From Polyangiaceae bacterium (GTDB taxonomy: Bacteria; Myxococcota_A; Polyangia; Polyangiales; Polyangiaceae), in NCBI GenBank assembly GCA_046351455.1, contig JAXLYM010000003.1, positions 216,364 through 280,363 of the forward strand: a DNA stretch of 64,000 nucleotides, read 5' to 3'. Below the pieces are notes generated by a model. That model did no database searches, was not told the DNA's origin, and saw only the letters and a program-made list of their open reading frames with translations. A program made the translations under genes and the position numbers. Positions 521 through 40,967 of the stretch are shown here, piece after piece. The stretch's first letter is position 1, and every line of letters starts with the position of its first letter.

Positions 521-3500
521 TCAGCGCACGTCGGGCCGCTCGAAGCCGGGCAGCAGCATCGACGCGAACCTGGAGGGATCGCGGACGCCGCGGTCTGCCA
601 GGAGGTTGTCGATCGTTTGAAGCTTGTCGCGAGCGCTGATGCCGCCTCGGACGAGGGCTTGCGCCCGCTGCGCCGCTAGCGTGTGGCCTGCCATGCCTGC
701 GGCCGTCGCGTGACGTTCGCCCTCTTCGAGGAGGCTCGTCACCGCGGTGCCGCGCTCGCCCTCGCGCACCTTGATCGCGGCGCGCAGGAAGCACGCGAGC
801 GCCGAGGCCCACGTCGCCTTCTCCGCGTCGAGCTTCTTCGCCGCCTTCGCCGCGACGCCGAGCAGCGGGGCCGCGTCCAGCTCGCTCCACGACGCGAGCA
901 CCGCCGATGCGCCGCGCAGGTACTCGCACGTCGTCCGCACCACGTGGATGCGCATGCTCATCGAGTCTTCGAGGCTCTTCCAACCTTCGGAGATGTGCGT
1001 GTACGCGCTCGCGCCGTCGCCGCGGTAGAGGTCGATCTGCACGCGCGCGACGACGTCGTGGAAGTGCTGCAGGTGCGCGCCCGCCCGCGTCCACGGGCCG
1101 ATCGCGGTCGACGCGCGCGCCGCCGCCGTGTCCGGCTCGCCGAGCACCAGCCACGCCGCGTTCGGGAAGCCGGAGCAGAGGTTCGTCGCGAAATAACGAT
1201 CGCCGCGCTCCTCCGCCTCGCGCACGAGCACCGGCGAGCGCTCGCACAAAAGCCTGTATTCACCGGCCCAGAAGAGCGCCCACAGGTGGAACGTCGCCGT
1301 GGAGCCCATCTCCCACGCCGACCCGACGCAGCGGTTCCGGAGCGCGTCCTCGCCCTCGGACAGGAGCGGCAGCGCGTCGCGGAAGCGGCCCAGCATGAAC
1401 GTGGACGCGCCCGAGAGCGCCGTCATCATCGCGAACGCGTGCGGGTGGCGCGAGCGCTCCGCCGCCTTCTGGCCCGCCGCCCGCAGCTCCTCCACGCGCG
1501 CGGTCGCCGAGGGGCCCGCCGTCGCGACGAAGCCCATCTCCAGCGCGAGCGAGCGCGCCACGCGGTACGGATCGCCCGCGGCCAGCGAGAACAGGAGCGA
1601 TCGCACCTGGAAGAAGGCCCCGCGAAGGCTGTCCACCATGCCGAGGCCCTTCGCCGCGGACCAGCACACGTCGACGCGACGCAGCTCCTGCGGCGGCACG
1701 CTCTCGGCCGCGCGCGGCGTGAAGTTGAGGCCGCGCAGACGCAGCTCCGCGCGACGGAAGAGCAGCGCCGCGAGCGTGGACGGCAGCGTCTCGGGGAAGT
1801 CGATGCCGACCGCTTCGAGCACGACGCGCAGGTGCTCCATGCCCTCGTCGATGTAGCCGGAGCGAAGCAGATTCTCGGCCGCGCGGCGGCGCAGCTCCAT
1901 CGACGAGGCCTCGGGGTAGAGCTCCGCCGCGGCGAGGTACGCGCCCGCCGCGTCGTGACCGCGGCCGCCGTTGTTGTGCGCGTCGCCGAGGCGCAAAAGG
2001 AGGCTCGGGCGCTCCGCGGCTCCCTTCGGCAACAGCGCGAGCGCGGTGCGGTAGAGGCGCGCGGCGCGATCGAACGCGAACGCCGCCATCGCCTCGTCGC
2101 CGGCGCGCGCGGCGTAGTCGGCGGCTCGGAGCGCGTCGCCCGCGCCCTGCCAGTGCATCGCGAGCTCCGACAGCTCGCCGCCGCCCATCGTCTCCAGCGC
2201 GAGGGCCAGGCGCGCGTGCCAGTCGCGCAGCTCCGACGGGACGAGCCGCCGCAGCGCCGTCTCGCGGATGCGATCGTGGTACGGCTCCAGCGCGTCCTCG
2301 ACCGTGACGGCGCTCGCGCGGATGAAGTGCTCGGCGAGCAGGCCCGCGATGAGGCGATCGATCTCGTCCGGCTCGGCGGAGAGGGCGTGCTGCGCCACCT
2401 TGCGCGCGACCGGCGTGCCCGCGACGGAGATGGCCGTGAGCAGCATGCGCGCGCGCGGCGGGAGCGCTTCGATCCGCGACCACAGCGCGTCGTCGAGCCG
2501 CACCGGCGCGGCTTGCGCGACCTCCGCGCGGGCGACGCGGTGACGCACGAGCGCGTCGAGGAACAGCGGGTGCCCGCTGCCTTCGGTGAGCAGCGTCTGC
2601 ACGTCGAACCCCGGCGCCGCCTCCACGCCGAACGCCCGCAGGAGCCCCGCCACGAGCTCGCGCGCCTCCTCCGGAGGGAGCCGCGTGAGGTGCAGCGTGC
2701 GCACGAGCCGCGGCGCGAGCTGGAGCGCGAGCTGCGGCGGCGGGCCGACCTCGGAGTCGGTGCGAACCGTCGCGAACAGCAGGATCGAAGGCCGCGTCTC
2801 ACCGCCGCGCGGGGCCGCGTCCGCGCGGAGGATCTCGGACAGGAGCGCGAGGCTGTCCGCGTCGGCCCACTGGAGATCGTCGATCGCGAGCACCACGGGC
2901 TGCTTCCGCGCGAGGTTCACGAAGAGGTCGCGCATCGTCGCGAAGACGCGCGCGCGCAGCTCCGCCGGATCGATCTCGGGCATGCGCGCGGCCGCGCTCG
3001 TCGCGTCGCGGAGGGCCGCGGGCGTGGCCGGAGATCGCGCCCCCGGCGTGAGCCGTTCGCCGCTGTTTCCGGGCGTGATCGCGCGCGGCGCCGCCCCGTC
3101 GTCCAGCAGATCGAGCACGAGCCCGCGGTCCCCGAGCGGCTGCGGCGGCCTCCACGAGATCGGCGCGGGCCCCGCTTTCTTCGCGACCGAGTCCGCGATC
3201 GCGAGCACCGGGAACACCGTCGCCGCGAGGCCGATGTCCGCGGGCAGGAGCGCGTGCGCCTCCTCCGGCGGGAGCTTCGCGAGGTACTGCCCCACGCGAT
3301 CGACGACGCCGTCCACGGCCTTGTACGGCACGCTCTCCCGCTCGTAGCAGCGCGCGCCGAACACGAGCGCCGACGCGGGCAGCCGGCTCAGGAGCTCGCG
3401 CACGAGCGTGGTCTTGCCGACGCCGGACTCGCCCTCGACGATCATCGCGCGCACGTCGCCGCGGACCGCGTCGTCGAACGCCCTCGAAAGCTCGGCGATC

Positions 3501-4651
3501 TCGCGCGTGCGTCCCACGAACAGGGAAGCGTGCGCGGGGTGCTTCCCCGGCCCGGTCGGATCCTCGCCGACCGCCTCGAGCACGTCGTCGAGGCCCGCGC
3601 GCTCGCCGGGATCGATGCGCAGCAGCGCCATCGTCAGCGCGTCGAGATCGGCGGGAATTCCAGGCACCACCGCGCTCGGAGGGAGCGGCGTCGTGGTCTG
3701 CTTCACGCTCGCGACGGCGTCGGACGCGACGTCGAACGGCAGCACGCCGGTCATCGCGAGGTAGAGCATCACGCCGACGGCGTACCAATCCGCGGCGGGT
3801 CCGACCGACTTGCCCGCGGCCTGTTCGGGCGCCATGAAGTGCGCCGTGCCGACGACCTGCGGTTCCTCGTCGGCCCACGTCTCCGTGACGAGGCCGAAAT
3901 CGAGGATGACGAGGCGCCCCTCCTTCGTGACGAGTACGTTCGACGGCTTGATATCTCGGTGGACGCGGCCGGACGCGTGCAGCGCGCCGAGCCCGTGCGC
4001 GAGCTGCGCCAGCGATTCGCGGAGCCGCGCTTCGTCGAAGATGCCGGGCAGCGCCGTGGGGGGTGAAGAATCCGACGTGCCTCGGACCGCAGGACGCACG
4101 ACCGTGTCTTGTTCGGCGCGCCGCGGTGTGCCTTGCTCGGAAGGCTCCGGGGCGGGCTCGCTGCCGCGCACGTGATCGACGAACGGCACGCCGGCGACGA
4201 GCTCCATCGTGAAGAAGAGCTGCCCGTTTTCTTCGAGCAGCTCCCCAAGACGCACGAGGTTCGGGTGAGCGAGATCGACCAGCGAACGGAACTCGTTCTT
4301 GAAGCGGAGGCGCCCGGCGGCGTCCAGGCTGCGCAGCGTCTTCAGCGCGACGCGCTGGCGGCGCTCGCGATCGAAGGCCTCGTACACGACGCCCATCCCG
4401 CCCCAGCCGAGGAGGCGACGGATCTCGAACCGGCTCGGCGAGAGGTCGGGGTCGATGCGCGAAGGGAAACGCACGGCGAACGGTACGGCGGTGAAGAGCG
4501 GAGCTTGGGCTCGGTCGCGGCGCGCGACGGAGCGGCGAAGGCTCGCACGGGGCGGGGGCAAAAGTCGACCGCCGGCGGCCTGTGGGGACGAGGAGCTGTC
4601 GCGGCGTTGCTTCCGGCGCGGCGCTCGCGGTACAGCGGCAGCATGATGCAA
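521..4651 (-). CDS. Ser/Thr protein kinase fused to a STAND-type AAA ATPase and a TPR-like C-terminal region (STK-AAA-TPR). The true start is probably internal, near 4480-4600; the listed first codon is a non-ATG start
   Basis: It has a G-loop GWGGMGVVYEAFD, a VAIK-like ALK motif, the catalytic loop HRDIKPSNVLV and DFG. After the kinase comes a Walker A motif GESGVGKTTL, then a long helical repeat region (about 1350 aa in total). Confidence 0.9.
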   Translation of the reverse strand: MHHAAAVPRAPRRKQRRDSSSSPQAAGGRLLPPPRASLRRSVARRDRAQAPLFTAVPFAVRFPSRIDPDLSPSRFEIRRLLGWGGMGVVYEAFDRERRQRVALKTLRSLDAAGRLRFKNEFRSLVDLAHPNLVRLGELLEENGQLFFTMELVAGVPFVDHVRGSEPAPEPSEQGTPRRAEQDTVVRPAVRGTSDSSPPTALPGIFDEARLRESLAQLAHGLGALHASGRVHRDIKPSNVLVTKEGRLVILDFGLVTETWADEEPQVVGTAHFMAPEQAAGKSVGPAADWYAVGVMLYLAMTGVLPFDVASDAVASVKQTTTPLPPSAVVPGIPADLDALTMALLRIDPGERAGLDDVLEAVGEDPTGPGKHPAHASLFVGRTREIAELSRAFDDAVRGDVRAMIVEGESGVGKTTLVRELLSRLPASALVFGARCYERESVPYKAVDGVVDRVGQYLAKLPPEEAHALLPADIGLAATVFPVLAIADSVAKKAGPAPISWRPPQPLGDRGLVLDLLDDGAAPRAITPGNSGERLTPGARSPATPAALRDATSAAARMPEIDPAELRARVFATMRDLFVNLARKQPVVLAIDDLQWADADSLALLSEILRADAAPRGGETRPSILLFATVRTDSEVGPPPQLALQLAPRLVRTLHLTRLPPEEARELVAGLLRAFGVEAAPGFDVQTLLTEGSGHPLFLDALVRHRVARAEVAQAAPVRLDDALWSRIEALPPRARMLLTAISVAGTPVARKVAQHALSAEPDEIDRLIAGLLAEHFIRASAVTVEDALEPYHDRIRETALRRLVPSELRDWHARLALALETMGGGELSELAMHWQGAGDALRAADYAARAGDEAMAAFAFDRAARLYRTALALLPKGAAERPSLLLRLGDAHNNGGRGHDAAGAYLAAAELYPEASSMELRRRAAENLLRSGYIDEGMEHLRVVLEAVGIDFPETLPSTLAALLFRRAELRLRGLNFTPRAAESVPPQELRRVDVCWSAAKGLGMVDSLRGAFFQVRSLLFSLAAGDPYRVARSLALEMGFVATAGPSATARVEELRAAGQKAAERSRHPHAFAMMTALSGASTFMLGRFRDALPLLSEGEDALRNRCVGSAWEMGSTATFHLWALFWAGEYRLLCERSPVLVREAEERGDRYFATNLCSGFPNAAWLVLGEPDTAAARASTAIGPWTRAGAHLQHFHDVVARVQIDLYRGDGASAYTHISEGWKSLEDSMSMRIHVVRTTCEYLRGASAVLASWSELDAAPLLGVAAKAAKKLDAEKATWASALACFLRAAIKVREGERGTAVTSLLEEGERHATAAGMAGHTLAAQRAQALVRGGISARDKLQTIDNLLADRGVRDPSRFASMLLPGFERPDVR

Positions 4652-16708: not shown

Positions 16709-19700
16709 ATGGCAGCTCCGGTCGCTCGGCGCTTCGCGCGCTGGCTCGCATTCGTCTTCACCTTCGCCGCATGCTGGCTCTCCGGCCGCGCGGCGCTCGC
16801 CACCACGATCCCCGGTGGCAACATCATCAACCAGACATGGACTCCGGCAGGCAATCCGTACCTGATTCAGGGTGACGTCACCGTCCCCTCGGGCGCCTTC
16901 CTGACGATCCAGGCCGGCACGATCGTCCAGTTCGCGAACAGCGATGGTCAGCTCGCGGGCCTCGACACGACGCGCGTCGAGATGACGATCAAAGGCACGC
17001 TCAACGTCAACGGCGTTCAGGGCAACCCGGTGGCCTTCTCCGGGCAGGCCGGCGCCGGCACGTCGGCGTGGTACGGTGTCGTGATCGACGCGGCCGCCAC
17101 GACGGCGGGCTTCACCTACGCCACGTTCCAGCACGCGCAGCGCATCGTGCGCAATTCGGCGCCGGGCACGGTGCTCTCGATGAGCAACGTCACCGTGACC
17201 AACTCGGCCAACGGCGTCGAGCTGCTCGCCGGCACTCCCACGCTCACGAGCCTGGACATCACCGGCGGGAGCTACGGCCTCAGCAGCTCCGGCAACGCGG
17301 CCCCGAACATCCAGTCGTCCACCTTCAAGAGCCAGACGTCCCAGGGGCTCGCGCTCTCTCCGACGACGGGCTCCCCGGCGATCACGGTGCAGAACACGAT
17401 CGTCACGGGCGCCGCGTTCTACGGCATCACGTTCGTGACCGATCTCAGCTCGAATTCCACGCTCGCGGTCACCAACACCACGGTCCACGGAAACGGGAGC
17501 TACGGTATCTACGTCGCCGCCTACAGCAGCAGCACCGCGACGCTGAACCTCAAGAACAGCATCGTCACGCAGCACCAGTACGGCGTCTTCAACTACAACG
17601 CGGCCGGCACCGAGATCATCAACGTCACGTACTCGGACGTCTGGAACAGCACCTCTGCCAACTACACGAACTGCTCCGGCGGGACTGGCGCCTTCTCGTC
17701 CAACCCTCTTTACGTGAGCGCCCCGACGAACATGCGGCTCACGTCCAACTCCCCTGCTCGGTTCGCGGGCGACACCCTCGCAGACATCGGTCCTCTGCCG
17801 TACGTGAACGACGCGACGCCCGGGTTCCACGGCACTTTGTGGACGAACACCACGTTCGGCGTCGCGGGGTCGCCGTACACCATCCAGGGGGACACGACGA
17901 TCCCGCCGGGCGTCATCGTCACGATCGATCCCGGCGTCACCATCCGCTGGACGGCCGGCACCGACATCATGGGATCCGGCCAGGATACGGGCCGTGGGGA
18001 GCTGCGGGTCCAGGGCACGCTGCAGGCGATCGGCACCGCGGCGCAGCCCATCACGCTCACGTCGACCGGGGCCGCCGCCGCGCAGCAGTGGACCGGCGTG
18101 ATCGGGCTCGCGGGCGCGACGGCGATGGCGCTCGGCTACGTGAACATCTCCAACGCCGACTCCGCGGTTCAGTCCTTCTTGACCGGAAACGCCTTCAGCG
18201 CGAGCCGGATCACCGTCACCACGTCCACGCGCGGGTTCGAGGTGCGCGCCGGAACACCCACGCTGACCGGCGTCGACGTGACCGGCGGCACGACGGGGCT
18301 CACGACGACGGGCAGCGCCGCCCCCACGATCCAGGCCTCCATCTTCAAGAGCCAGACGTCCCAGGGCCTCTCGATCGCCCCCACGGCCGGCAGCGGCACG
18401 ACGACGATCGTGAACACCATCGTGCGCGGCGCCGCGTTCTACGGCATCACGATGGTGACGGACCTCAGCGCGGTCGCGACGCTCAACCTCACGAACTCCA
18501 CGATCCACGGCAACGGGTCCTATGGAGTCTACATCGCGGCGTACTCCAGCAGCACCGCGAACGTGGCGATCAAGAACACGCTCGTGACGCAGCATCAATA
18601 CGGCGTCTTCAACTACAACGCGGCCGGGACCGAGATCGTGACCACCACGTACTCGGACGTCTGGAACAACACCTCTGCCAACTACACCAACTGCTCGGCC
18701 GGCACGGGCAGCATCTCGCAGAACCCGCTCTACGTGAGCCCGCCCACGGATCTGAAGCTCCAGAGCTTCAGCGTCTGCATCGACGCGGGCACGGCCACGG
18801 GCGCTCCGGCCACCGACTTCGACGGAGCGACTCGGCCCATGGACGGCGACGGCATCAACGGCGCGGCCTTCGACATGGGCGCGTACGAGCTCGCGGCGGC
18901 GGCCTCCTGCGGCGACGGCATCGTGAACAACGGCGAGGTGTGTGACAGCGGCGCTCAGAATGGCATGTACGGCGCGTGCAAGGCGGACTGCTCCGGCCTC
19001 GGCCCGCGCTGCGGCGACTCCATCGTGAACGGCCCCGAGCAGTGCGACGACGGCAACGTCAGCAACACCGACGCTTGCCTCAACACCTGCCAGAACGCAG
19101 CCTGCGGGGACGGCTTCGTCCGCGCCGGCATGGAGATGTGCGACGACGGCAACATGAGCAACACCGATGCTTGCCTCAACACCTGCGTCCCGGCCTCGTG
19201 CGGGGACAGCTTCGTGCAGGCGGGCGTCGAGCAGTGCGACGACGGCAACCAGGTCAACACCGACGCTTGCCTGACGACGTGCATGAACGCGACGTGCGGT
19301 GACGGCTTCCTCCGCGCGGGCGTCGAGCAGTGCGACGACGGCAATCAGATCAACACCGACGCTTGCCTCAGCACCTGCCAGAACGCGACCTGCGGGGACG
19401 GCGTGGTCCGCGCGGGCGTCGACCAGTGCGACGACGGCAACGCCAGCAACACGGATAACTGCCTGAATACATGCAACAACCCCACTTGCGGCGACGGCTT
19501 CGTCCACACGGGCGTCGAGCAGTGCGACGACGGCAACCAGGTCAACACCGACGCTTGCCTCAACACCTGCCAGAACGCGATCTGCGGGGACGGCGTGGTC
19601 CGCGCGGGCGTCGAGCAGTGCGACGACGGCAACCCGGTCAACACCGATGCTTGCCTCAACACCTGCCAGAACGCCACGTGCGGTGACGGCATCGTGCAGG

Positions 19701-20974
19701 CGGGCGTCGAGCAGTGCGACGACGGCAATCAGGTCAACGGCGACAGTTGCACCAACATGTGCGCACAGGCGATCTGCGGGGACGGCGTCGTGCAGGCGGG
19801 CGTCGAGCAGTGCGACGACGGCAACGCCTCCAACACCGATGCTTGCGTGACCGGCTGCAAATCCGCCACGTGCGGCGACGGCTTCGTGCAGGCCAACGTC
19901 GAGGGCTGCGACGACGGCAATCAGATCGACAACGACGCGTGCCGCAACGACTGCAAGCTCCCGGGCTGCGGCGACGGCGTGAAGCAGGCGAACGAGCAGT
20001 GCGACGACGGCAACGCCTCCAACACCGACGGATGCCTCGTGACGTGCTTCTTGCCGAGCTGCGGTGACGGCTTCGTGCAGACGGGCGTCGAGCAGTGCGA
20101 CGACGGCAATCAGGACGACACCGACGCTTGCCCGACGACGTGCGTCCCGGCCAAATGCGGCGACAAGTTCGTTCAGGACGGCGTCGAGCAGTGCGACGAC
20201 GGCAACCAGGACGACACCGACGCCTGCGTGCAGGGATGTGTGAGCGCCACCTGCGGAGACGGCTTCATCCAGGCCGGCGTGGAGCAGTGTGACGACGGCA
20301 ATCAGATCGACAATGACGACTGCCCCAACAACTGCATCTCTCCCACGTGCGGAGACGGCGTGAAGCAGCCGAACGAGGAGTGCGACGACGGCAACCAGGA
20401 CGACACCGACGCTTGCCTCCACACGTGCATGAACGCGAAATGCGGTGACGGCGTGGTCGAGGCGGGCGTGGAGCAGTGCGACGACGGCAACCAGATCGAC
20501 GACGACGCGTGCCCCAACGACTGCCAGTCTGCCTCGTGCGGTGACGGCGTGAAGCAGCCCGGAGAGGCCTGCGACGACGGCAACGCCTCCAACCTCGACG
20601 ACTGCTTGAACGACTGCAAGATCGCGAGCTGCGGCGACGGTTATGTCCACGTCGGCGTCGAAGACTGCGACGACGCGAACGGCGTGGCCGGCGACGGCTG
20701 CAGCCCCACGTGCGAGTCCGAAACCAGCACCGGCGGCGCGGGCGGCGGCGGAAACGGCGGCTCCGGCGGAAACGGCGGCAACGGCACGGGCGCGACCGGC
20801 GGAAACGGCACCGGCGCGACCGGCGGCGGCGGCGGCGAAAAACCCGGTGACAGCGGTGGTTGCGGCTGCCGGATGGCCTCCGACTCCCCGGTGGAGACTC
20901 CGGCCCTCCTGATCGGTCTGATGACGCTGGGCGTGCTGCGGATCCGCCGCAAGAAGGCGGCCCGCGCGGCCTGA
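16709..20974 (+). CDS. giant secreted protein: N-terminal right-handed parallel beta-helix (pectate-lyase fold) repeats, then ~19 tandem Myxococcus cysteine-rich repeats (TIGR02232-like), then a Gly-rich spacer and a MYXO-CTERM-type sorting signal
   Basis: The signal peptide is [26 protein letters not shown]. There are repeated NTxVxG/NGxYG beta-helix rungs, and ~19 copies of CGDG(F/V)[27 protein letters not shown]. The protein ends [39 protein letters not shown]. Confidence 0.8.
18955..20660 (+). repeat. ~19 near-identical ~114-nt tandem coding repeats (the Cys-rich repeat array) inside the giant protein gene
   Basis: Blocks such as ggcgtcgagcagtgcgacgacggcaaccaggtcaacaccgacgcttgcctcaacacctgccagaacgc recur many times, identical or nearly identical. 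Confidence 0.85.
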
Positions 20975-22417: not shown

Positions 22418-23671
22418 ATGATCCGCGAATTCTCGATCAAGAACTACAAATCGATCGTCGACCTCACGCTTCCGTTGGGGCGGATCAACTTGTTCATCGG
22501 GGAGAACGGGTGCGGGAAGACGAATATCCTGGAGGCCATGGCGATGGCCGCGGCGGCAGTCGCGGATCGGCTCGGAAACGAAGAGCTTTACAATAGGGGA
22601 GTCAGGATCGCGAAGCCGGACATCACGTTTAGCTCATTCACCGGACTCAAGACCTCCCGAGAGGTCGTCTTTCAGTTCCGGGATGAGCCGGGAACCGAGC
22701 GGGATCACGAGGAAGCGAAGCTCCGGCTGGTTCTCACGGCCGGCACGGAGAACGATTCATGGGCAAGGGTCAAATCAGAACCGGCTGCCGTCGCCGCAGC
22801 GACCCAAGAATCCATGGACTCGAAGGAGCTTGAGGATGTCGTCCGTAGAATAAACGATGGCGAACCGCTTGAACCTTCCTTGAGGCTCAAAGTACTTGCC
22901 GCGTTTCGCGAGACAATGCGCACCACGACACGAGAACAACGTGCGCTCTTCTTCTCGCTCAACAAGCAGCGTGCTCACTTAACTGAGTTTCTAACGGATT
23001 TTCTCATCTACAATGCCAATCACCTCGCCCTCCGCGGCCTCCTGAACCTCAGCCGCAAAGAGCCGCTCGGCATCCATGGCGAAAACCTCGACGTCACGAT
23101 TGCCTCTCTGGGTGACAAAGGCATTCGTGAGCTGCTGGAGCGCTCCGCCCTCATCCGCTGGGTGGAGCGCATCTTCACCGACCCGGACGACAAGCTCAAA
23201 TTCGACGGCTACAAACTCGGCCGCAGCACCTCCACCCTTTATTTCCGCGACCGCTTCATGCGCAAGCGCGCGAACCTCTTCTCCGCCGAGAACGCCAACG
23301 AGGGTATCCTCCACGCCCTCTTTTATCTCACGCTCTTCATCAGCGATCGCACCCCGAAGACGTTCGGCATCGACAACATCGAGACGGCTCTCAACCCCCG
23401 ACTCTGCCGCAACCTCATCAAACAGCTCGGAGATCTGGCGAAGGCCCACGACAAACAGGCCCTCATCACGACCCACAATCCGGCCGCGCTCGACGGCCTC
23501 GATCTCCACGACGACGAACAGCGCCTCTTCGTGGTCTCGCGCGACGATCAAGGGCGTACGGTGGCGAACCGCATCAAGCTGAAGCCGGAGACCAAGGGCA
23601 AGGAGCCTCGTCTCATGCTGTCCGAGATGTGGATGCGCGGGCAGCTCGGCGGCGTCCCGCTGGAGTTCTGA
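22418..23671 (+). CDS. ABC-type AAA ATPase of the AAA_15/AAA_21 (RecF/SMC-like, OLD/AbiLi/AriA-type) class
   Basis: The Walker A motif is GENGCGKTNILEA. A signature-like SAENANEGILHALFYL follows. The Walker B/D-loop is TFGIDNIETALNP and the H-loop is ITTHNP. The 5' ~600 nt have visibly lower GC (~50-57%) than the ~70% background. Confidence 0.85.
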   Translation: MIREFSIKNYKSIVDLTLPLGRINLFIGENGCGKTNILEAMAMAAAAVADRLGNEELYNRGVRIAKPDITFSSFTGLKTSREVVFQFRDEPGTERDHEEAKLRLVLTAGTENDSWARVKSEPAAVAAATQESMDSKELEDVVRRINDGEPLEPSLRLKVLAAFRETMRTTTREQRALFFSLNKQRAHLTEFLTDFLIYNANHLALRGLLNLSRKEPLGIHGENLDVTIASLGDKGIRELLERSALIRWVERIFTDPDDKLKFDGYKLGRSTSTLYFRDRFMRKRANLFSAENANEGILHALFYLTLFISDRTPKTFGIDNIETALNPRLCRNLIKQLGDLAKAHDKQALITTHNPAALDGLDLHDDEQRLFVVSRDDQGRTVANRIKLKPETKGKEPRLMLSEMWMRGQLGGVPLEF

Positions 23672-23674
23672 CCG

Positions 23675-24415
23675 ATGAAGGTGGGAGTCGTGGCGGAGGG
23701 GCCTTCGGATGTCGCCGTCGTCCTCAATATCCTCTTCGGCAAGCTCGGCGTGGAGCGTCGAGACATCGTGCCCATCCGGCCGGAGCTCACGACCGACGAG
23801 ACCGATCTCTCCGAAAAACGCGCCGGCGGCTACAAGCCTCCTTCGAAGAAGAGCTTCAGCAACTGGCAGCTCGTCCTCGGGGAGTGCGCGGATCGAACGA
23901 GCCTCTCCGACTTCCTGGACAGCCCCATCGACGAGCCGAGGCTCCTCGTCGTCCAGATCGACACCGCCGAAGCGCACCTCGCTGGATTCGACGTCGCGCG
24001 GCCCGACCACGACGCCGGCGACTACGTGGCAGAGATGCGGAGTCGTGTCGTGGCGAAGCTCGCGGCCTTGCTCGGAGAGGACTTGACTCCACGCACCCGA
24101 TTCGCTGTGGCCGTGGAGGAGATCGACGCGTGGGTTCTCACGCTCTACGCCGAAGACGGTGAGGAGACCGGTCGAGTCAAAAATCCCAAGAAGAAGCTGG
24201 AATTCGCCCTCAGCTCGGCTCCTGTCCCACGTTCGAAATCTCGTTCTCCCTCCGGCCGCGGAGCGACGAAGAGCGGTGATCGTCCCGCCAAGAAGTCTCT
24301 GTTCGAGCTCTACCACGAACGGAGCGCGCCGCTCCGCGATGGCGCCACGCTGGAGACTTGCAAGCAGCGGAACCGCAGCCTCGCGATGTTCGTCGACTCG
24401 CTCGCAGGGGATTGA
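23675..24415 (+). CDS. small partner protein of the ATPase, DUF4276-like, possibly a TOPRIM/nuclease-like effector
   Basis: It starts 4 nt after the ATPase stop. Its N-terminus MKVGVVAEGPSDVAVVLNIL matches the M-K-x-x-V-E-G-x-S/T-E start typical of DUF4276. There is an acidic cluster DHDAGD and an EEIDAW motif. I assign this from pattern memory, not from a database search. Confidence 0.55.
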   Translation: MKVGVVAEGPSDVAVVLNILFGKLGVERRDIVPIRPELTTDETDLSEKRAGGYKPPSKKSFSNWQLVLGECADRTSLSDFLDSPIDEPRLLVVQIDTAEAHLAGFDVARPDHDAGDYVAEMRSRVVAKLAALLGEDLTPRTRFAVAVEEIDAWVLTLYAEDGEETGRVKNPKKKLEFALSSAPVPRSKSRSPSGRGATKSGDRPAKKSLFELYHERSAPLRDGATLETCKQRNRSLAMFVDSLAGD

Positions 24416-24531
24416 GGGCAAAGGCTCCATCCCCGAAACTGGCAGCCTCCTCATCCCCCGTCGCGGCCGACGAGAATGCCAGTTTCGATTGCGCCCTTCT
24501 TTTTTGCTGGAACCCGCGGTCCCTTCGCGTG

Positions 24532-39002: not shown

Positions 39003-40967
39003 TCACGCCGGGATGGCCTGCACACGGGACACGCTCGGGGGCGGGTCGACGTGGGCGCGGATCTCCTCCAAGAAGGCGGGGCCCAGGTCCAGAAGGCGCC
39101 TCTCCCCGACGCCGCGGATTCGGCGGAACGACTCCGGATCCGTGGGGCGAAGCGTAGCCATCTCTCGCAACGAGACGTCGCCGAAGATGACGTACGCCGG
39201 GACGTCGCGCTCGTCCGCGATCGCTCGACGCAGCTTGCGGAGCCGCTCGAACAACTCCTCGTCGAAGGAGGACGCGTCCGGTGAAGACGGCTCGGAAGGA
39301 GCCTTTTCGCTCGCGGCGACGGACGGGCGCGACGGGGCGAGGGGGCGCGTCAGCGGGATGGGGGTGCGCTTCGACAAGGCCTCTCGGCCCGCGGGGGTCA
39401 CCTCGAGGACGTTGAAGCCGCCGTGATCGTCCATGCGCAAGAGGCCGAGTCGCAACAGCTCGCGGCCGATCGCCAGCCACTCGGCGCGCGGGCGCTCCTT
39501 GCCGATCCCGTACGTCGACAGGCCCTCGTGGCCGAGGCGGTGGATCTTCTCGCTGTCCGCGCCGCACAGCACCGCGGCCACGTGCGTGAGGCCCATCGAG
39601 ATTCCGCTCCTCTGTTGAATACGCAGGACACAGCTCATCAGCTTCTGCGCCTCGATCGTGCCGTCGTACACCTCGCGCGGTGAGAGGCAGTTGTCGCACC
39701 CGCGACACGGGGTCTCCGCGCGGGATTCGCCGAAATACGCGAGCAACGCGCGGCGGCGGCAGCTCCCGGACTCGGCGAAGGACACCATCTCTCGGAGCTT
39801 CTTTCGGGCGCGCGCGCGGTCCTCGTCATCCGGCTTCTGGTCGATCAAGCGGGCCTGTTTGACGGCGTCGCCCGGCGCGAAGAAGAGCACCACCTCGGCC
39901 GGCTGTCCGTCGCGCCCCGCCCGGCCCGTCTCCTGGTAATAACTCTCGATGTCGCCCGGCAGATCGTGGTGGATCACGAACCGCACATCGGGCTTGTTGA
40001 TGCCCATCCCGAAGGCGACCGTCGCGCACACCACGCGCACCGCGTCGCGCCGAAAGGCCTCCTGCGTCTGCGCGCGGCGGGACGGCTCCAGACCTGCGTG
40101 GTACGGCGCCGCATTGACGTGCTCGCGGCGGAGGCGCTCGGCGAGCTTCTCGGCCCCTCTTCGGCTGTGCGCGTACACGATGCCGGGCTCGCCCGCGTGG
40201 CGCTTGCAAATCGCGAGGATCTTGTCGAATGCGGATGTCCGCGGCTCCACCCGATAGAGCAGGTTCGGGCGGTCGAAGCTCGCGACATAGCACTTCGGAT
40301 CGCGGAGGCGCAGGCTCGCGAGGATGTCGGCCTGCACGCGCTCGGTCGCGGTCGCGGAGAGGGCCATCACCGGCGCCTCCGGGAAGAGGCGGCGAAGATC
40401 GGCGATCCGTCGATACTCCGGCCGGAAATCATGGCCCCACTGGCTGATGCAATGCGCCTCGTCCACCGCGAGGAACCGCACGTCGAACGCCTTCAGCGAC
40501 GCCAGGAACCCGGGCAAGAGGAGCCTCTCGGGCGCGACATAGAGGAGCGAATACCGCCCCTCGAAGAGGCCGCGCATGCGCCGCCGCGACTCTTCGTGAT
40601 CGAGCGTGGAGCTCAGGAACGTGGCCGGAATCCCCATCACGGTGAGCGAGTCGACCTGGTCCTTCATCAGCGCGATGAGCGGCGACACCACGATGGAGAG
40701 GCCCTTTCGCACGACGGCGGGGAGCTGGAAACAGAGGCTCTTTCCGCCGCCCGTGGGCAGGATCGCCAGCACGTCGCGCCCCGAGAGCGCGTCCTTGATG
40801 ATGTCCTCTTGCAAGGGACGGAACGAGCGAAAGCCGAAGTGCCTCTCCAGGAGCGAGAGGAGCGCGGCAGTGTCGGGGACGGCCTCTCTCTTCCCAGATG
40901 CGGAGTCGCGCCGGGGAGCAGAGGGCCTTTCGGAGGAGGAGCGGACGGTGGTCGGTGCTTCGAGCAT
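39003..40967 (-). CDS. recQ: ATP-dependent DNA helicase RecQ (helicase + RQC + HRDC)
   Basis: Motifs are FRPLQEDII, ILPTGGGKSLCFQLPA, the DEAH box VDEAHCISQWGHDFRPEY, the Zn-binding Cys cluster CRRRALLAYFGE...CRGCDNC, and a C-terminal HRDC-like segment. Confidence 0.9.
   Translation of the reverse strand: MLEAPTTVRSSSERPSAPRRDSASGKREAVPDTAALLSLLERHFGFRSFRPLQEDIIKDALSGRDVLAILPTGGGKSLCFQLPAVVRKGLSIVVSPLIALMKDQVDSLTVMGIPATFLSSTLDHEESRRRMRGLFEGRYSLLYVAPERLLLPGFLASLKAFDVRFLAVDEAHCISQWGHDFRPEYRRIADLRRLFPEAPVMALSATATERVQADILASLRLRDPKCYVASFDRPNLLYRVEPRTSAFDKILAICKRHAGEPGIVYAHSRRGAEKLAERLRREHVNAAPYHAGLEPSRRAQTQEAFRRDAVRVVCATVAFGMGINKPDVRFVIHHDLPGDIESYYQETGRAGRDGQPAEVVLFFAPGDAVKQARLIDQKPDDEDRARARKKLREMVSFAESGSCRRRALLAYFGESRAETPCRGCDNCLSPREVYDGTIEAQKLMSCVLRIQQRSGISMGLTHVAAVLCGADSEKIHRLGHEGLSTYGIGKERPRAEWLAIGRELLRLGLLRMDDHGGFNVLEVTPAGREALSKRTPIPLTRPLAPSRPSVAASEKAPSEPSSPDASSFDEELFERLRKLRRAIADERDVPAYVIFGDVSLREMATLRPTDPESFRRIRGVGERRLLDLGPAFLEEIRAHVDPPPSVSRVQAIPA

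Follow-up and report, generated by a model that had tools for sequence, protein, structure and literature searches.

An ABC ATPase and Toprim-like gene pair in a Polyangiaceae genome as a probable instance of the candidate defence type PDC-M31

What kind of system is encoded by two adjacent, relatively AT-rich genes that stand alone between unrelated genes of a GC-rich myxobacterial genome? The pair lies in a 64,000-nt stretch of contig JAXLYM010000003.1 (Polyangiaceae bacterium, assembly GCA_046351455.1), hereafter the window, and consists of gene A (22418..23671, + strand), for a 417-amino-acid (aa) ATP-binding cassette (ABC) ATPase of the SMC/Rad50 type (AAA_15/AAA_21) resembling PDC-M31A, and gene B (23675..24415, + strand), for a 246-aa divergent, Toprim-like putative nuclease of the DUF4276 superfamily resembling PDC-M31B. 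An earlier interpretation made from the DNA letters only (the sequence-only reading) had proposed a horizontally acquired abortive-infection module. Our analysis indicated, with a probability of roughly 60%, that the two genes form an intact operon belonging to the 'ABC ATPase + Toprim nuclease' class among the conflict systems of prokaryotes, and that they correspond to the candidate system PDC-M31.

Both open reading frames (ORFs) were found where they had first been placed. Gene A ends with TGA at 23669-23671 and gene B begins with ATG at 23675, leaving a spacer of 3 nt; 11 nt 5′ of this ATG there is a GGAG. Both ORFs are full length and retain every residue that is invariant in their families.

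Pfam searches gave matches of gene A to AAA_21 (2.5e-18) and AAA_15 (6.9e-16), in agreement with the class first assigned to it. By far its best match in PADLOC was PDC-M31A (E 8.1e-82, 273.5 bits), with residues 1-414 aligned to positions 1-393 of the 395 in the profile. HEC-01A (6.3e-27), AriA (2e-22, partial), AbiLi (3.5e-20), mad3 (1.9e-15), GajA (2.8e-13, ATPase part only) and Old (5.8e-13) matched more weakly. Membership of PADLOC systems was judged here from the E-values and profile coverage of the hidden Markov models (HMMs). None of the NCBIfam models matched gene A at its own cut-off; MAD3, for instance, scored 34.6 against a cut-off of 420. The product of gene A is an SMC/Rad50-like ABC ATPase head with a helical insertion of about 120 residues, and its fold was closest to the SMC and Rad50 heads. 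Walker A, a signature-like motif, the Walker B Asp, the H-loop and the SMC-head fold, by which ABC ATPases of the SMC/Rad50 clade are recognised, are all present.

The three motifs named in the sequence-only reading, GENGCGKTN, FGIDNIE and TTHNP, were located at residues 28-36, 316-322 and 351-355, respectively. In the Walker A motif or P-loop (22499..22525, + strand), G28, N30, G31, G33, K34 and N36 are invariant in the 82 ATPases of the family and in an independent alignment (A4). The H-loop region T351-T352-H353-N354-P355 (23468..23482, + strand) has invariant T351 and T352, and H353 is kept in 75 of the 82 sequences and replaced by Gln in the other 7. FGIDNIE includes an atypical Walker B, I318-D319-N320-I321-E322 (23369..23383, + strand), with D319 in 82/82, N320 in 81/82, and Glu or Asp at position 322 in 82/82; D319 and N320 are also invariant in A4. 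After the Walker B, the family reads L-N326-P in place of L-H-P, both in the 82 ATPases and in A4.

ABC ATPases carry a catalytic Glu at the Walker B position where the gene A clade has Asn. Because IDNIE aligns with IEEPE..LHP of TsOLD and with IDEPE..LHP of P2 Old, Asn has taken the place of the catalytic Glu throughout the clade; the plasmid relatives, too, share in the replacement, with N, N, N and S at this position. With Walker A and the H-loop intact, this suggests either that hydrolysis is slow, as in a natural E-to-Q-like state, or that the catalytic base has moved to E322.

The partner was harder to place. As a single sequence, gene B had no match in Pfam (E <= 1), NCBIfam, PHROGs or the PDB sequences, and profile searches likewise gave nothing of use; the profile search that reports Pfam labels returned strong, unlabelled members of the family only and no bridge to named families. 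The gathering threshold of Pfam DUF4276 (PF14103; 30.2 bits) was not reached by gene B, and across the partner family this model gave weak matches in 4 of 69 members (best E 0.019). The family comprises some 120 clusters at 90% identity and some 1,055 representatives at 50%, none with a Pfam label. A bridge was found in annotated plasmids whose ATPases are 30–37% identical to gene A and are each followed by a gene for 210–240 aa. Among these, the partner on a Pseudanabaena plasmid is annotated as 'DUF4276 family protein' and scores 31.6 bits, just above the gathering threshold. The alignment of 69 partner-family members (A1), our reference for conservation and for hhalign comparisons, matched this protein with 99.0% probability (E 3.3e-18, 195 columns), and the partners on Acinetobacter and Enterobacter plasmids with 99.4% and 94.3%. 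There was no similarity between A1 and P2 Old (probability 0.13%). Published work places DUF4276 in the Toprim superfamily, its Glu following strand 1 and its DxD following strand 3 (PMC12065111). Remote homology thereby points to gene B as a member of the DUF4276/Toprim superfamily, and the DUF4276-like character first proposed for it was borne out at an hhalign probability of 99% despite the lack of a Pfam match.

The conserved residues of the partner follow this pattern. Across A1, E8, G9, D12, V15, P36, D96, A144 and W153 are invariant, and D41, T43, D44, T97, A98, E99, E148 and E149 nearly so. The putative Toprim motif 1, E8-G9-P-S-D12 (23696..23710, + strand), directly follows strand 1 (residues 2-6). 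A variant of motif 2, D96-T97-A98-E99 (23960..23971, + strand), stands at the end of strand 3 (89-96), with T97, A98 and E99 each kept in at least 90% of members; here the second Asp of the Toprim DxD is Ala, and a Glu follows one position later, where the DUF4276 plasmid relatives read DSD or DTD (IDSD/IDTD). An acidic motif, E148-E149-I-D-A152-W153 (24116..24133, + strand), comes after strand 4 (141-146), with E148, E149 and A152 likewise at 90% or more. The acidic set E8, D12, D41, D44, D96, E99, E148 and E149 may form a metal-binding site. Of the two acidic clusters that the sequence-only reading had singled out, EEIDAW (148-153) is thus conserved, whereas DHDAGD sits in a variable, non-conserved loop. 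The predicted structure of gene B was confident (predicted local distance difference test score, pLDDT, 89.8; predicted template modelling score, pTM, 0.86), with a core of four beta-alpha units followed by a helical C-terminal half. The model resembles PH0156 and the Toprim regions of OLD nucleases, and its best Foldseek match in the PDB had an E-value of 0.22. Residues ~182-208 form a low-complexity insertion rich in Ser, Arg, Pro and Lys, with low pLDDT, which is common only to the closest myxobacterial relatives and is missing in most of the family.

PDC-M31 is a PADLOC candidate defined from cassettes that lie within BREX, DISARM or type I restriction-modification loci (Payne et al. 2024, bioRxiv 10.1101/2024.01.29.577857; cassette CAS_00126, FAM_00005>>FAM_00304). 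The pair in the window has the same layout, with two genes on one strand, A then B, and gene A matches the lone PDC-M31A model end to end. It differs in its partner: gene B matched PDC-M31B weakly (E 8.5e-7), and only over residues 2-97 on positions 3-82 of the 241 in the profile. PDC-M31B was matched by 68 of the 69 partner-family members, all weakly (best E ~1e-13), and the RefSeq Bacteroides members were just as weak although their ATPases match PDC-M31A at 4e-86. Because these matches are weak across the whole family, gene B is best viewed as belonging to a subfamily that is sister to the catalogued B proteins and has diverged from them. It would not be a new fold. The suggestion that the partner might be an undescribed effector therefore fails: it is a divergent Toprim/DUF4276-like protein, in a pair that matches a catalogued type.

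The absence of the catalytic Glu in the ATPase and of the second Asp of DxD in the partner raises another reading, which is that this copy, or the whole clade, is degenerate, either a relic or a non-catalytic binding or regulatory complex. The Walker B D-N of 81 of the 82 family members and the D-T-A-E of the partner speak for this reading, and several loci do carry interrupted or split ATPase genes. In one such decayed copy (L032, 5152-9995), roughly 3.9 kb separates the N- and C-terminal parts of the ATPase, and the partner has a frameshift; in another (L089, 9067-9997) the ATPase is called as fragments of 267 and 46 aa. Both substitutions are, however, fixed over hundreds of diverged sequences in which Walker A, the H-loop and the eight acidic residues are strongly conserved. 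This conservation pattern indicates that a working site is kept by purifying selection, E322 and E99 being plausible substitutes for the lost residues, and the two ORFs of the window are full length with all invariant residues. We consider degeneracy quite unlikely.

The two genes are closely linked throughout the family. An ATPase homologue lies directly upstream of the partner in 80 of 81 related loci, and in the lone exception the partner stands at a contig edge; the spacer between A and B is 0–8 nt in 69 of 82 loci. Pairwise identities among the A proteins and among the B proteins were correlated with r = 0.94, a value reached by none of 999 Mantel permutations, and gene B evolves faster than gene A (mean identity 41% vs 50%). 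The hosts are found among Myxococcota, Bacteroidota, Ignavibacteria, Desulfobacterales and Gammaproteobacteria, a patchy phylogenetic spread. The best match in the genome collection was 51% identical, and, among relatives with contig context, the closest (P0004, 69%) has unrelated flanks. Phages rarely carry the family: it was present in 2 of 2.9 million IMG/VR contigs, and the INPHARED phage genomes gave no match. Related pairs do occur on small mobilizable plasmids, namely the 5.8-kb Paracoccus plasmid pMARC2 and Acinetobacter plasmids of 10–12 kb.

Flanks differed in 38 of the 51 loci with at least 5 kb on both sides, and in 35 of these 38 contexts (dereplicated loci L001-L091) the pair was more AT-rich than its flanks, by 6.7 points on average. 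The pair is therefore no conserved syntenic locus of native GC content, which would have spoken against the module first proposed. These data also bear on whether the pair could serve housekeeping DNA repair, as RecF and RecR do, the former being an SMC-like ABC ATPase and the latter a Toprim protein. Homologous ATPases are named 'recombinase RecF' in some sources, the fold of gene A is closest to SMC/Rad50 heads, and the NCBIfam RecF model gave a weak N-terminal match (1.5e-9). But that match is far under the cut-off and limited to the P-loop region, and the patchy distribution, the 38 contexts among 51 loci, the AT-richness, and the occurrence on plasmids and in defence islands all argue against a repair function, which is very improbable.

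Base composition had been one ground for proposing horizontal acquisition. The GC content is 0.688 in the window and 0.612 in the gene pair, which is the lowest-GC 2-kb stretch of the 64 kb, with 0.08% of sliding windows equally low. The first 613 nt of the pair measured 0.563, also the minimum of the window and within the 50–57% first estimated for about 600 nt. GC at third codon positions (GC3) is 0.78/0.79 in the pair and 0.87–0.92 in the neighbouring genes. The AT-enrichment of the pair, however, spans hosts of 32% to 75% GC, with the GC of the pair tracking that of its flanks (r = 0.97) and with deficits of 4.8 to 11.4 points among high-GC hosts. The deficit of 7.6 points in the window is thus typical of the family and no proof of recent acquisition, and we rejected low GC as a sign of recent import. 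It therefore marks an accessory, defence-type gene rather than a fresh import from a low-GC donor. Of the earlier proposal, an accessory and horizontally distributed pair is retained, but the low GC has no value as evidence for recent acquisition. No close relative of the flanking hydrolase, which could have served for an empty-site comparison, was found in metagenome contigs.

In Bacteroidota, one identical partner protein (P0289) recurs in no fewer than three different neighbourhoods, which together contain GmrSD_N, AAA_13, LmuB_C, CTD7, STAND NTPases, RVT_1 with AAA_15/21, a Dam-type methyltransferase and SocA_Panacea. We scanned with PADLOC the 96 nearest genes from 24 low-GC contexts and, separately, those of 14 high-GC, myxobacterial contexts. 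The matches in the low-GC contexts included MTase_II (7/24), mad2 (6/24), Avs4, PD-Lambda-5 A and B, AbiLi, mREase_IV and PDC-S06, and the 14 myxobacterial contexts gave four Ser/Thr kinases only. Elsewhere in the window, only kinase (521-4651) and helicase models matched. The pair is thus found in variable defence islands in Bacteroidota and is solitary in Myxococcota, including the window, and the proposed check for homologous pairs in defence islands came out positive in the former phylum and negative in the latter.

Some PADLOC matches in the window were rejected as nearby defence genes. The PsyrT match (7e-97) most likely comes from a housekeeping RecQ (39003-40967, − strand) about 14.6 kb away, with an E-value of 2e-153 to RecQ in the PDB; the DpdF match (~1e-223) is probably the same RecQ, its ORF of origin being deduced; and the PD-T4-6/mad6 matches reflect a generic Ser/Thr kinase. 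This RecQ could give rise to false defence calls in PADLOC.

Two kinds of locus have additional genes beside the pair. In some Bacteroidota loci (L090, 10685-11545; likewise L092 and L093), only 4 nt separate the stop of the partner from the start of a Dam-type methyltransferase (MethyltransfD12), and these may be a three-gene, MADS-like variant. On the Enterobacter hormaechei plasmid pE5_001 (L085, 5001-11179), a related pair stands beside a SAVED-domain protein and a ThiF-family adenylyltransferase, a CBASS-like arrangement; this plasmid is conjugative, and the pair comes just after traI.

We infer by analogy a role of the pair in anti-phage defence. In a published E. coli assay, HEC-01, a related candidate, gave no protection. 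The pair can also be read as a selfish addiction or stabilisation module, similar to a toxin-antitoxin system, in which a Toprim toxin is restrained by the ATPase and the main effect is retention of the carrier DNA. That would suit the related pairs on very small mobilizable plasmids, where they lie beside BrnT/BrnA and replication genes, as well as the solitary myxobacterial copies and the Pfam description of AAA_21 as 'putative AbiEii toxin, Type IV TA system'. Yet the Bacteroidota copies lie among many bona fide defence genes, and known pairs of ABC ATPase and Toprim protein such as PARIS are triggered defence systems (PMC11464382). Addiction as the main effect is unlikely in our view, and it is not mutually exclusive with abortive infection.

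The combination of ABC ATPase and Toprim protein is common to PARIS, AbiL, OLD, Gabija and MADS3-4 (PMC11464382, PMC12065111), and the pair in the window shares this layout. The architecture proposed in the sequence-only reading was thus confirmed, but not membership of AbiL, PARIS or Gabija, none of whose second components (AbiLii, AriB, GajB) was matched. PARIS consists of the ABC ATPase AriA and the DUF4435 Toprim nuclease AriB; here the AriA match is partial (2e-22), Asn replaces the Walker B Glu, and no AriB/DUF4435 was found for the pair in Pfam or PADLOC (E <= 1). In AbiL, OLD and Gabija, an AAA_15/21-type ABC ATPase is likewise coupled to a Toprim nuclease. For AbiL, the AbiLi score of gene A (3.5e-20) compares with 8e-82 for PDC-M31A, and AbiLii had no match in PADLOC. 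Class 1 OLD nucleases and GajA carry the Toprim domain in the same polypeptide as the ATPase, whereas in the window it is a separate ORF, and the UvrD-like helicase GajB of Gabija is absent, the adjoining genes being the hydrolase and a sigma factor. HEC-01, an Hma-embedded candidate whose HEC-01B has been described as TOPRIM-like with an OLD-like metal site, shares the ABC ATPase and TOPRIM layout, and 29 of the 69 partner-family members match HEC-01B, weakly; but gene A scores far lower on HEC-01A than on PDC-M31A, and there is no Hma system around the pair. In the methylation-associated defence system MADS, mad3-mad4 encode an AAA_15/21 ATPase and a DUF4276-type Toprim protein (PMC12065111, PMC11464382). 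The pair resembles them in its two components, in the mad3 match of gene A and, in some Bacteroidota copies, in the methyltransferase directly downstream; no methyltransferase (mad2) or other mad gene was among the 37 gene products of the window scanned against PADLOC.

By analogy with PARIS, OLD and Gabija (PMC11464382), an oligomer of the ATPase would hold the nuclease inactive and act as a sensor. A phage cue would alter the nucleotide state of the ATPase, so that the Toprim protein is released or activated, and the freed protein would cut nucleic acid, either tRNA as AriB does or DNA as OLD and GajA do, which would abort the infection. Since the catalytic Glu of Walker B is Asn in this clade, the ATPase probably acts as a switch that binds ATP and hydrolyses it slowly, and not as a fast motor. 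The fixed Asn residues (D-N-I-E, L-N-P) together with the shift of DxD to DxAE might even make the PDC-M31-type clade a mechanistically distinct branch of the OLD/PARIS-like systems, a proposal that we regard as doubtful. If the ATPase binds ATP but barely hydrolyses it, it would be a natural 'E-to-Q' clamp that could read the nucleotide state of the cell or could free its nuclease by nucleotide exchange and not by hydrolysis, unlike PARIS as reported.

The immediate surroundings of the pair agree with the unrelated minus-strand neighbours and the lack of a nearby transposase first noted. On one side lies an alpha/beta-hydrolase (Abhydrolase_1, 3.5e-34 in Pfam), and on the other an extracytoplasmic function (ECF) sigma factor followed by a 57-aa ORF, all on the minus strand. 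No integrase or transposase domain was present in the six flanking products scanned against Pfam, no direct repeats were found flanking the pair, and there was no tRNA in the 64-kb window. In this genome the module stands by itself as an accessory insertion, with unrelated genes on either side. A scan for consensus promoters and terminators gave no match. Downstream of gene B, in the convergent intergenic region, an imperfect inverted repeat (I6; 24434-24452 / 24469-24487, 19-nt arms, 84% complementary) is followed by a T-run (24500-24505), and this element (24434..24505) is a possible terminator. A 487-aa antisense ORF (22991-24454, − strand) that overlaps both genes was rejected as an unsupported high-GC artefact.

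Two other genes in the window were recorded. Directly upstream of the hydrolase, a gene at 16709-20974 (+ strand) encodes a secreted-looking protein of 1421 aa, in which a beta-helix-like region at the N-terminus precedes 15 DUF4215 repeats rich in Cys (E 8.9e-94). An 852-aa ORF at 30758-33316 (− strand) resembles, in residues 490-788, positions 474-789 of the eukaryotic Major vault protein (MVP; phmmer E 5.5e-14), and may encode a bacterial, here myxobacterial, MVP-like protein.

The pair is probably a slightly divergent instance of the catalogued PDC-M31 type, and no new category of biology; its only unusual features are the Walker B Asn found throughout the clade and the DTAE motif. It adds a solitary myxobacterial instance to a widespread class of candidate defence systems in which an ABC ATPase is paired with a Toprim protein. 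A small partner that matched no Pfam or NCBIfam model can now be placed, by remote homology, in the DUF4276/Toprim superfamily, and the current Pfam and PADLOC models of the B component under-detect its subfamily. The replacement of the Walker B catalytic Glu throughout the clade offers a concrete handle on how sensor ATPases of this kind are switched.

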